DNA of 18,284 bases from a virus (taxonomy: Duplodnaviria > Heunggongvirae > Uroviricota > Caudoviricetes): positions 1 to 18,284 of the IMG/VR virus record IMGVR_UViG_2534681673_000003. One strand, given 5' to 3'. The notes beneath the pieces are model-generated. The model worked only from the letters and a program-made list of their open reading frames with translations. It searched no databases and was not told the DNA's origin. Below, piece by piece: positions 13,750 through 14,255 of this stretch. Positions within the stretch are counted from its first letter, which is position 1, and every line of letters begins with the position of its first letter. The translations under genes and the position numbers were made by a program.

Positions 13750-13926
13750 AAAGTGTATTTTGTGATGCGGTGAATGCGGCTAAGCACACGCGGAACAGTT
13801 AAAACAAGCGGTCTTTTACTGGCGTAACAGACATCAACTAACAATCCGGCGTTAATTGTTAACTGGTTAACGTCACCTGGAGGCACCAGGCACCACATCA
13901 CAAAATTCATTGTTGAGGACGCGATA

Positions 13927-14115
13927 ATGGAAACGTCACTACCAAACGTTAATACGTCTGAAGGGTGTTTTAATATTGGTATTCTGCTCAGTAACCGGGA
14001 GTTTACTGAGGACGCCATCAGGATGAGAAAATATGAGCCTTATCTTCTCAATGATAATTCCATACTCTCCAGAATTGCCCTTCTTGAACTTGGCATTTTC
14101 GGAGGGCAGCAGTGA
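13927..14115 (+). CDS. Small hypothetical protein (62 aa)
   Basis: ATG 13927 with GAGGA 9 nt upstream; METSLPNVNTSEGCFNIGILLSNREFTEDAIRMRKYEPYLLNDNSILSRIALLELGIFGGQQ. Its TGA stop overlaps the GTG start of the next ORF. Confidence 0.4.
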   Translation: METSLPNVNTSEGCFNIGILLSNREFTEDAIRMRKYEPYLLNDNSILSRIALLELGIFGGQQ

Positions 14116-14255
14116 GTTCAGCGTTTGCACTGATGATGACGGTTTTTCTGATAACAGGTGAGCCACAGAATGTGATTACCGGAATTTATGCCAGTAAAGA
14201 ATCCTGCCATCAGGCAAGAGACGAGCAAAAATTTCCGGTGAATGTCTCCCGTTAA
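14112..14255 (+). CDS. Small hypothetical protein (47 aa), translationally coupled
   Basis: GTG at 14112 overlaps the upstream stop (GTGA), with strong SD GGAGGG 5 nt upstream; hydrophobic N-terminus SSAFALMMTVFLITG. Confidence 0.35.
   Translation: MSSAFALMMTVFLITGEPQNVITGIYASKESCHQARDEQKFPVNVSR

Follow-up and report, generated by a model that had tools for sequence, protein, structure and literature searches.

The region under study lies at the distal end of an early-left operon of the dicBF type in a lambdoid Shiga-toxin prophage, carried on a stretch of 18,284 nucleotides that was analyzed as a whole (the window). Our overall model, to which we assign a probability of about 85%, is that a DicF terminator is followed by a structured leader whose closing helix, P1, is cut by RNase III, and that dicB and a frameshifted ydfD lie beyond it. 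What was computed here comprises the gene identities, the frameshift, the DicF-like terminator, how far the fold is conserved and co-varies, and the lack of a promoter-like site; how the operon is transcribed and read through, where RNase III cuts and what the proteins do are drawn from the literature on Escherichia coli K-12. The dicB-ydfD pair is not new, as it is characterized and annotated in thousands of genomes. Only the kinship of the leader with STnc100 and its pseudoknot are possibly new.

Genes and promoter of the operon

Inspection of the coding sequences recovers both overlapping open reading frames of the preliminary description, one of 62 aa (13927-14115) and one of 47 aa (14112-14255, GTG start). 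By sequence comparison, the former (+ strand, ATG start) is the known cell-division inhibitor DicB. The protein covers positions 1-62 of 62 of Pfam PF05358 (E 7e-34, 115.7 bits against a cut-off of 27), scores 102.2 bits with NCBIfam NF049927 (cut-off 100), agrees with the RefSeq annotation and is 58% identical to K-12 DicB, which blocks division through MinC (PMC10448788, PMC6832061). The identical protein occurs on at least 999 contigs, where it carries the name DicB. Its position is likewise that of dicB: within an early operon under repressor control, it follows DicF and directly precedes a ydfD that overlaps it. A ribosome-binding site, GAGGA, can be read at 13915-13919 (+), and the block 13910-13926 is 100% identical to K-12. 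A contig search that used one DicB protein as its query found a lone locus, in E. albertii, a viral-contig search with a DicB alignment retained only relatives at least 90% identical, and a PDB sequence search with DicB gave no meaningful match.

The second reading frame (+ strand) is a frameshifted homologue of ydfD (DUF1482), 40% identical to K-12 YdfD. Pfam PF07358 matches it at 36.2 bits (cut-off 25), over profile positions 1-38 of 57 only, and alignments show that it departs after residue 40 from both K-12 YdfD and its 62-aa counterpart in a genome that is 99.9% identical, such that 40 native residues are followed by 7 out-of-frame residues. DNA alignment with NZ_AP027258 places the frameshift at an A5 run (14227-14231, +) with one A fewer than intact relatives; the ancestral stop would fall at 14297-14299. 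The frame of 47 codons is therefore present but does not reflect the native gene length, since near-identical genomes encode 62 aa, as do 74 of 79 related loci. The 62-aa form is found on at least 999 contigs. A homopolymer sequencing error could in principle have produced the 47-aa allele, with the counterpoint that exactly this protein stands on 31 contigs. The window protein falls short of the ~62-63 aa that include the C-terminal domain, and in K-12 the removal of even 1-5 C-terminal residues abolishes killing by YdfD (PMC8835842); judged from its sequence, the frameshifted gene is probably inactive. NCBIfam offers a model neither for DUF1482 nor for the 185-aa protein encoded nearby.

Other features of the pair were described correctly from the outset. 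The second protein has a hydrophobic N-terminus (it opens MSSAFALMMTVFLITG), and its ribosome-binding site, GGAGGG (14101-14106, +), lies within the end of dicB, five bases ahead of the GTG. The dicB stop and ydfD start overlap by four nucleotides, GTGA here (14112-14115) and ATGA in K-12, and this overlap is conserved in 79 of 79 related loci.

Upstream of the pair lie a CI-like repressor gene encoding HTH and Peptidase_S24 domains (11699-12343) and a ydfA-like gene (DUF1391; 12617-12769, +; Pfam PF07151, E 5e-30), the first gene of the operon, whose coding sequence is annotated identically by RefSeq in a 99.9% identical genome. In such genomes the RefSeq series runs DUF1391, dicB, DUF1482, exonuclease, excisionase and integrase. 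The window prophage itself appears intact, with stx, Q, xis and int all present. A consensus scan of 12300-14500 identified a sole + strand promoter-like site, a sigma-70-like TTGACA-17-TATATT at 12413-12441, which sits between the repressor and ydfA-like genes. By analogy with K-12, this site is likely the equivalent of pL/dicBp and would drive the whole + strand operon. In K-12, the ydfABC-dicF and ydfABC-dicF-dicB-ydfD transcripts share dicBp as their start, and dicB-ydfD is reached through read-through from this promoter upstream of ydfA (PMC10448788).

DicF-like RNA and the folded leader

Alignment with K-12 dicF and a terminator scan locate a DicF-like small RNA at 13711-13749 (+), whose terminator hairpin is shortened. 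The scan places a terminator-like hairpin and T-run at 13724-13743/13749 on the + strand, with the stem at 13724-13729 and 13738-13743 and a U-tract that extends to 13749. The terminator described earlier at 13724-13749 is thus that of the DicF-like RNA. The 5' part TTTCTGGTGA is common to this RNA and K-12 dicF, the hairpin is 19 nt shorter than that of K-12, and the 3' region, which in K-12 DicF pairs with ftsZ (PMC5069750), has been replaced. It resembles DicF in having a conserved 5' segment (UUUCUGGUGA), a Rho-independent terminator directly after it and the syntenic position. The Rfam DicF model (RF00039) does not match the window version at its gathering score or at E<=10, in contrast to the K-12 dicF control at 76.7 bits. 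Because the terminator hairpin is unlike that of K-12, termination efficiency and targets may differ. A match to AgvB at 13680-13749 (E 6.8) was weak and was dismissed as chance.

The three GTTAA units that the preliminary description noted upstream of the pair (GTTAATTGTTAACTGGTTAA, 13851-13870) are indeed present, and are most likely part of a conserved folded RNA leader rather than a protein-binding operator. The pattern GTTAA-N2-3-GTTAA-N2-3-GTTAA has a single match in the window and none in any of 200 shuffled sequences, whereas GTTAAC alone is not enriched (5 found versus 3.8 expected). The minimum-free-energy fold of the leader is closed by the 21-bp helix P1 (5' arm 13752-13772, 3' arm 13891-13911, both +), a long-range helix and probable RNase III substrate that is also detected as an inverted repeat (19 nt with 13891-13909, 89% complementary), with mismatches in the window at 13756·13907 and 13768·13895. 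Its 3' arm ends 4 nt ahead of the dicB ribosome-binding site. Across 28 sequences 98% of P1 cells pair, and two pairs have changed on both sides. The outer P1 helix occurs only in DicF-linked and L037-type forms, and a permutation test of outer P1 across subfamilies discriminated little, with an observed mean of 7.6 versus 6.2 for permuted partners, of 12.

Hairpin P4, which is captured as an inverted repeat, in the minimum-free-energy fold and by co-variation, accommodates all three GTTAA units. Its 5' arm GGCGTTAA (13848-13855, +) holds unit 1 and pairs with the 3' arm TTAACGTC (13867-13874, +), which overlaps unit 3, and its loop TTGTTAACTGG (13856-13866, +) holds unit 2. Two of the 8 pairs in P4 have changed on both sides, and in another two a single partner has changed, by way of G·U or A-U. 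Other subfamilies carry wholly different P4 stems at the same place; the loop is near-invariant in the DicF-linked subfamily and is retained in L037, L042 and L096 relatives, in which the stems are completely different. Within the loop, 13859-13865 is complementary at 7 of 7 positions to CAGTTAA at 13796-13802 (+), and the two segments are proposed to form the 3' and 5' strands of a pseudoknot. Pairing of unit 2 with an upstream segment co-varies across the wider family. When 20 distinct variants were examined for the segment most complementary to the P4 loop, it fell 17-23 nt after GGTGAAT in 18 of them, the sequences themselves differing.

The third helix, P5 (CCTGG-AGGCA-CCAGG, 13876-13890, +), was obtained from the minimum-free-energy fold and a viral-contig scan. 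Of 16 possible combinations, viral contigs contain only the two that are complementary, CCTGG/CCAGG (41) and CCGGG/CCCGG (98), and P5 aligns with the corresponding hairpin of Rfam STnc100. The P2 hairpin is poorly defined, with two alternative pairings that fit and no co-variation within the subfamily.

Taken as a whole, the leader folds with z = -3.8 relative to shuffled sequences, and 98.7% of cells pair, as opposed to 34-42% when the partners are slid. With 76 G·U cells in the alignment, pairing amounts to 98.5% if the + strand is read and to 92% for the - strand. Four leader pairs have changed on both sides in the DicF-linked alignment, where co-variation is modest (8 cells changed on both sides); the sequences are related to each other, and the search pattern used to gather them holds P5 constant. 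In a cross-subfamily MAFFT alignment, some rows have the P4 arms displaced by two columns, and pair counts were instead taken from anchored searches. The non-coding sequence that separates DicF from dicB is much more strongly conserved than its flanking genes, with an identity to K-12 of 93-100% for the leader, 64% for dicB and 54% for ydfD. Among 5426 E. coli genomes, 4352 carry the conserved block, in 8724 copies altogether.

In K-12, the 72-nt DicF is made from a full-length RNA by RNase III processing (PMC5069750, PMC9438474). When mapped by alignment, the K-12 cut (53+19 nt) lands midway along the P1 5' arm. This position is taken from the lengths of 72 and 53 nt as quoted by others; the cut itself was mapped by Faubladier 1990. 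By analogy, RNase III would cut within P1 in the window prophage as well, and a 2-nt stagger of the cut would put the 5' end of the dicB mRNA near 13902. In papers on global RNase III mapping, dicB and DicF appear in reference lists only.

Possible kinship with STnc100 and alternative readings

Comparison with STnc100 and PasD raises the tentative idea, to which we give just short of an even chance, that the leader belongs to a wider pseudoknotted prophage RNA family comprising these RNAs and several unnamed variants. The core of such a family may consist of GGUGAAU, P2, the pseudoknot, a variable hairpin, P4 and P5 with its AGGCA loop, with P1 closing all. The leader has in common with STnc100 and PasD the GGUGAAU junction, the inner P1, P5 with its AGGCA loop, a P4 that ends at the C of CACC, and a P4 loop that would pseudoknot with a segment ~20 nt after GGUGAAU; inner P1, P4 and P5 are shared with compensatory differences. 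In contrast, P1 spans 21 bp in the leader versus 7-10 bp in STnc100/PasD, the terminator precedes the domain rather than following it, and the leader is directly followed by a coding gene, unlike STnc100. The window also holds a true STnc100 copy (335-547, - strand, 158 bits with Rfam RF02076), which lies downstream of stxB. In the DicF-linked form, P1 may have lengthened to a size that RNase III can cut, and the domain may have been fused ahead of a toxic gene; from there it might be released as a stable RNA in its own right or might gate the production of DicB. In the literature on DicF/dicB and prophage small RNAs, we found no description of the extent of this wider family.

If kinship is taken further, the DicF-dicB block could be mainly the gene of a trans-acting small RNA, an STnc100/PasD paralogue that acts on other mRNAs or binds a protein, with RNase III excising ~138 nt (roughly 13764-13901) from the operon transcript. 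We consider this unlikely, at about one chance in four, although several observations are consistent with it. The Rfam STnc100 model matches the leader both in the window (31.1 bits, E 1e-4) and in K-12 (34.4 bits, E 1e-5), while both scores fall under the gathering score of 47 bits. Conversely, a model built from the leader finds the true STnc100 copy of the window (375-533, - strand, 36 bits, E 3e-7) and scores intermediate family members at 125-139 bits, but the reverse strand of the leader also reaches 34 bits with this model, and scores of ~34 bits are consequently not decisive. Architecture and pseudoknot are common to the leader and the STnc100 family, members of which (STnc100 and PasD) are reported as Hfq-associated prophage small RNAs (bioRxiv 10.64898/2026.05.13.724894), and cutting both P1 arms would excise the core. 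The leader is not, however, a stand-alone terminated small RNA: a terminator of its own within 110 nt is absent from 26 of 26 DicF-linked copies and present in 18 of 33 other forms. The literature on the operon contains no report of an excised species, and a role in cis is suggested by the P1 3' arm, which lies right next to the dicB ribosome-binding site.

That the conserved block is instead a DNA-level recombination junction between mosaic phage modules, with an incidental fold, appears very unlikely. The excess of conservation over the flanking genes and the abundance of the block in E. coli would suit such a junction, as would mosaic joints inside it, for example a 283-aa gene at the AAAATTCATTGTTGAGGA junction and a truncated copy at locus L082. 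Compensatory and G·U-compatible substitutions in three helices, pseudoknot strands that change together at a fixed position across subfamilies, and the coincidence with the mapped RNase III cut (PMC5069750, PMC9438474) would all be unexpected under recombination.

Least probable of all, and hardly credible, is the interpretation of the preliminary description, namely an autonomous toxin-antitoxin or kil/anti-kil cassette with its own promoter after the terminator and a protein bound to the GTTAA near-palindrome: the motif has dyad symmetry and is statistically unique in the window, a terminator does lie upstream of the pair, and an internal K-12 promoter upstream of dicB was listed by Cam 1988 (as cited in PMC10448788) and in database entries (as cited in PMC11430063), but the + strand contains no sigma-70-like site from 12442 to 14500 by consensus scan, and primer extension and Northern blots in K-12 found no internal promoter (PMC10448788). 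Against an operator role stands the identical motif under unrelated repressors, DicA in K-12 and an S24-type CI in the window. GTTAA units 1 and 3 vary while keeping base pairs, G·U included, which would be meaningless for a DNA operator, and both stem arms are fully replaced in relatives that keep the loop. The cro-cI and pL regions of the window have repeats that are rich in AT, and GTTAA is absent from both. Some loci have the element separated from dicB by a 283-aa gene, or have other genes after it; the GTTAA motif thus travels with DicF and not with dicB. As for the toxin-antitoxin claim, the pair is real and, going by K-12, co-transcribed and toxic, but published work speaks against a toxin-antitoxin pair: DicB is itself toxic (PMC8835842, PMC5069750). 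The upstream product does counteract its neighbor in K-12, where DicB prevents lysis by YdfD (PMC8835842; PMC11430063, citing Masuda 2016). Because SulA blocks this lysis too, the protection by DicB would be indirect, via cell-division arrest (PMC8835842).

Proposed expression of the operon and comparison with known systems

In the dicBF-type model, transcription would begin at the repressor-controlled promoter upstream of the ydfA-like gene, probably that at 12413-12441, and some of it would end at the terminator of the DicF-like RNA (13711-13749). Read-through RNA is predicted to form the conserved structured leader of ~160 nt (13752-13911), composed of the 21-bp P1, the small hairpin P2, a variable hairpin, P4 with GTTAA units 1 and 3 in its arms, the pseudoknot between unit 2 and CAGTTAA (13796-13802), and P5. 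RNase III cleavage of P1 would then free an extended DicF and leave an mRNA for dicB and ydfD whose 5' end lies ~25 nt upstream of the dicB AUG. From this mRNA dicB and the ydfD homologue would be translated, probably coupled via the GTGA overlap. By analogy with K-12, DicB would block division via MinC, and lysis by YdfD would require ongoing division. This Shiga-toxin prophage combines an intact dicB, a broken ydfD and a divergent DicF, and its induction is therefore expected to cause filamentation without YdfD-type lysis. The co-varying, pseudoknotted fold at the RNase III cut offers a testable structure for separating, and possibly controlling, the toxic dicB message. If the wider-family reading is true, an operon found in ~80% of complete E. 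coli genomes would gain a third product or an additional layer of control.

Comparison with type II toxin-antitoxin systems reveals two small overlapping genes in both cases, with an upstream product that counters killing by the downstream one. In contrast to such systems, both dicB and ydfD products are toxic, SulA protects equally (PMC8835842, PMC5069750), and no autoregulated promoter is known for dicB-ydfD, nor was one found. The HK022 put antiterminators share with the dicB leader the character of cis-acting structured RNAs in lambdoid early operons, whereas the dicB leader comes after a terminator and not before one. Kinship with putL/putR was rejected, as the best hit of the leader covariance model in the HK022 genome had an E of 1.1. 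The lambda N leader and sib form a long duplex of the pL operon beside a ribosome-binding site and are cut by RNase III, and by description the dicB leader resembles them. Lambda Kil and Rac KilR are small toxic proteins of pL-type operons that block FtsZ-ring function and are silent in the lysogen. They resemble DicB as early-left division inhibitors, a likeness by description, with DicB acting through MinC (PMC10448788).

The closest counterpart is the K-12 Qin dicBF operon, which has the same ydfA-like gene, DicF-type RNA with terminator, leader, dicB and ydfD overlapping by 4 nt. Qin is a cryptic prophage under the repressor DicA, whereas the window prophage looks intact apart from the ydfD frameshift and encodes an S24-type CI. 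In place of ydfB and ydfC, the window carries a 185-aa gene on the opposite strand (phrog_1244), and the gene that follows ydfD is an intact 823-aa exonuclease rather than the ydfE pseudogene.

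The dicB-ydfD pair and the DicF variant before it

Two ORFs of 62 and 47 aa, at 13927-14115 (+, ATG start) and 14112-14255 (+, GTG start), overlap in GTGA, with GGAGGG 5 bases 5' of the GTG and a hydrophobic stretch opening the shorter product, all as given in the preliminary description. The homology search proposed there was run and identifies the ORFs as DicB and a DUF1482/YdfD relative. Judged by sequence, the first ORF is DicB: PF05358 (Pfam) spans its whole length (E 7e-34), it exceeds the score that NCBIfam requires for its model "cell division inhibition protein DicB", it shares 58% identity with DicB of E. 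coli K-12, and its exact sequence occurs on at least 999 contigs, where it is named DicB. The second matches DUF1482, to which YdfD, a lysis protein in K-12 (PMC8835842), also belongs, but only over profile positions 1-38 of 57. A genome 99.9% identical across the region encodes a 62-aa counterpart; the A-run at 14227-14231 is one A shorter in the window, so that the 47-aa ORF is out of frame after residue 40. The overlapping pair is conserved in all 79 related viral loci, each with a 62-aa dicB and a 4-nt overlap (GTGA or ATGA) at the start of the downstream gene, which is itself 62 aa long in 74. Because the exact 47-aa form is present on 31 contigs, it is probably a real allele, minor and degenerate.

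The pair is thus already known and partly degenerate in the window. In K-12, DicB inhibits division via MinC (PMC10448788), while YdfD lyses cells unless DicB or SulA prevents it, and lysis requires an intact YdfD C-terminus (PMC8835842). Of the toxic pair suggested earlier, the kil-like linkage is sound in light of this K-12 literature, which argues against the toxin-antitoxin reading.

The terminator-like hairpin and T-run described at 13724-13749 are present and align to the end of K-12 dicF. They close a DicF variant at 13711-13749 (+) that keeps the K-12 5' segment TTTCTGGTGA but has a terminator hairpin 19 nt shorter. Owing to this shorter hairpin the Rfam DicF model does not detect the variant, whereas the K-12 dicF control scores 76.7 bits. 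Among the 79 related loci, 10 have this exact variant. The 3' region with which K-12 DicF pairs to ftsZ is replaced, and therefore the targets of the variant may differ.

A predicted folded leader, more likely than an operator

Between the DicF terminator and dicB lies a leader that is 93-100% identical to K-12, compared with 64% for dicB and 54% for ydfD, and of 5426 complete E. coli genomes, 4352 carry its 3' half. An inverted repeat of 19-21 bp (13752-13772 with 13891-13911; helix P1) closes the predicted fold (z = -3.8). The GTTAA triple GTTAATTGTTAACTGGTTAA at 13851-13870, the sole such triple in the window and matched by none in 200 shuffles, falls inside this fold. Since GGCGTTAA (13848-13855) is predicted to pair with TTAACGTC (13867-13874), units 1 and 3 make up opposite arms of a single hairpin, P4, with unit 2 in its loop TTGTTAACTGG; the next hairpin, P5, reads CCTGG-AGGCA-CCAGG.

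Across 28 distinct leader copies from viral contigs, 98.7% of paired cells are complementary, versus 34-42% with the partners slid. Four pairs are altered on both sides and several alternate G·U with G-C or A-U, with changes such as GACTGTAA/TTGCAGTC and GGCGGTAA/TTATCGTC in P4 and A-U to G-C or U-A to C-G in P1. Pairing holds at 98.5% on the plus strand versus 92% on the minus strand, with 76 G·U cells. Taken alone, this co-variation within the DicF-linked subfamily is suggestive rather than conclusive, being of modest extent and drawn from related sequences.

The triple had instead been read as a plausible operator, and the pair as possibly served by a promoter of its own. Neither reading is supported. 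The motif is unchanged under different repressors, and GTTAA is absent from the AT-rich sequence around the promoters of the prophage itself. A promoter scan found no promoter-like site between the DicF terminator and dicB, and primer extension in K-12 gave no sign of the internal promoter that an older paper had proposed (PMC10448788). The element, moreover, travels with DicF and not with dicB, and is followed by other genes in some loci. A gene of ~283 aa is interposed before dicB in the viral contigs L017, L088 and L145-L149, where the junction AAAATTCATTGTTGAGGA is duplicated, pointing to recombination within the P1 3' arm. A comparison with HK022 revealed no kinship between the leader and the put antiterminator of that phage.

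Probable RNase III substrate, proposed pseudoknot and possible wider RNA family

Potentially new material is limited to the leader's putative pseudoknot, its proposed STnc100/PasD kinship and its fit to RNase III, of which no description was found within the accessible literature. In K-12, RNase III processing yields a 72-nt DicF, 19 nt longer than the 53-nt form (PMC5069750; PMC9438474). In an alignment of leader copies, the position 19 nt past the annotated K-12 dicF end lies midway along the 5' arm of P1, making P1 very likely the RNase III substrate. With the usual 2-nt stagger, a second cut would fall near 13901/13902, leaving a dicB mRNA that starts ~25 nt before its AUG and freeing a core of ~138 nt.

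The Rfam STnc100 model matches the leader below threshold (window, 31 bits, E 1e-4; K-12, 34 bits, E 1e-5). Conversely, when the leader was used to build a covariance model, that model matched the window's real STnc100 copy at 36 bits, a score that alone proves little, given 34 bits for the reverse strand of the leader itself. In a search of 99 loci it picked out intermediate relatives, scoring 125-139 bits, whose P1 and P4 stems differ wholly in sequence with complementarity kept, and in which the P4 loop TTGTTAACTGG and an upstream CAGTTAAA are unaltered.

In other subfamilies the P4 loop co-changes with a segment ~20 nt past a conserved GGUGAAU (for example AAGGTTG/CAACCTT, AGACTGACA/TGTCAGTCT, GAACTGGCA/TGCCAGTTC, CTGGTGT/ACACCGG, TATCAGCGC/GTGCTGATA and GCCAGGTCG/TGACCTGGC). 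The best loop complement lies 17-23 nt past GGUGAAU in 18 of 20 distinct variants (binomial P ~5e-14, the variants not all being independent and about nine unrelated in sequence). This pattern supports a pseudoknot between the two segments. In the window it would join 13796-13802 to GTTAA unit 2, at 13859-13865.

Two features set the DicF-linked form apart from the others: its P1, ~21 bp versus 7-10 bp, and its terminator, which precedes the leader in 25 of 26 copies and follows it in none, whereas one follows the other forms in 18 of 33. Relatives at L037 9745-9918, L042 6756-6932 and L096 3883-4052 combine another 20-bp P1 and another P4 stem with the same P4 loop; they have no DicF upstream, and the small genes downstream begin with hydrophobic-looking residues. 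Their sequences suggest a distinct subfamily of the fold.

Prophage surroundings

The window is a lambdoid Shiga-toxin prophage. On its minus strand are cro-like, replication, hok/sok, DUF968, RusA, Q and DNA methylase genes, three tRNAs, stxA/stxB and the STnc100 sRNA; on its plus strand are an S24-type CI repressor, a ydfA-like gene, the dicB/ydfD region, an 823-aa exonuclease, xis and int, with a strong sigma-70-like site at 12413-12441 (+). Three tRNA genes at 1957-2205 (-) lie between the methylase gene (2246-3304) and stxA, a placement typical of Stx phages. The plus-strand region has the same layout as the dicBF operon of the K-12 Qin prophage, whose transcription starts at dicBp, ahead of ydfA, under repression by DicA, with transcripts stopping at the DicF terminator or past ydfD (PMC10448788).

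The stxA (903-1862) and stxB (622-891) genes are followed immediately by the full-length STnc100 sRNA (335-547, -; 158 bits), and the leader on the prophage's other arm has the same core fold. The hok/sok toxin-antisense module at 6573-6897 (-) comprises a 70-aa Hok/gef protein and a sok RNA (113 bits). Between the ydfA-like gene and DicF, in place of ydfB/ydfC, a 185-aa ORF at 12883-13440 (-; 171 aa in RefSeq) looks like an inserted accessory gene, or moron; it carries CPKC...CLYC motifs and matches phrog_1244, of unknown function, with no match in Pfam or NCBIfam. The exonuclease gene is closely preceded by a second highly conserved non-coding block at 14339-14394 (+), ATGCCAGCAATGGCAGGGATT...GAGGTTTAAACA. 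The block contains the small hairpin TGCCAGCAATGGCA and hardly differs from the stretch that precedes ydfE in K-12, even though the flanks are divergent.
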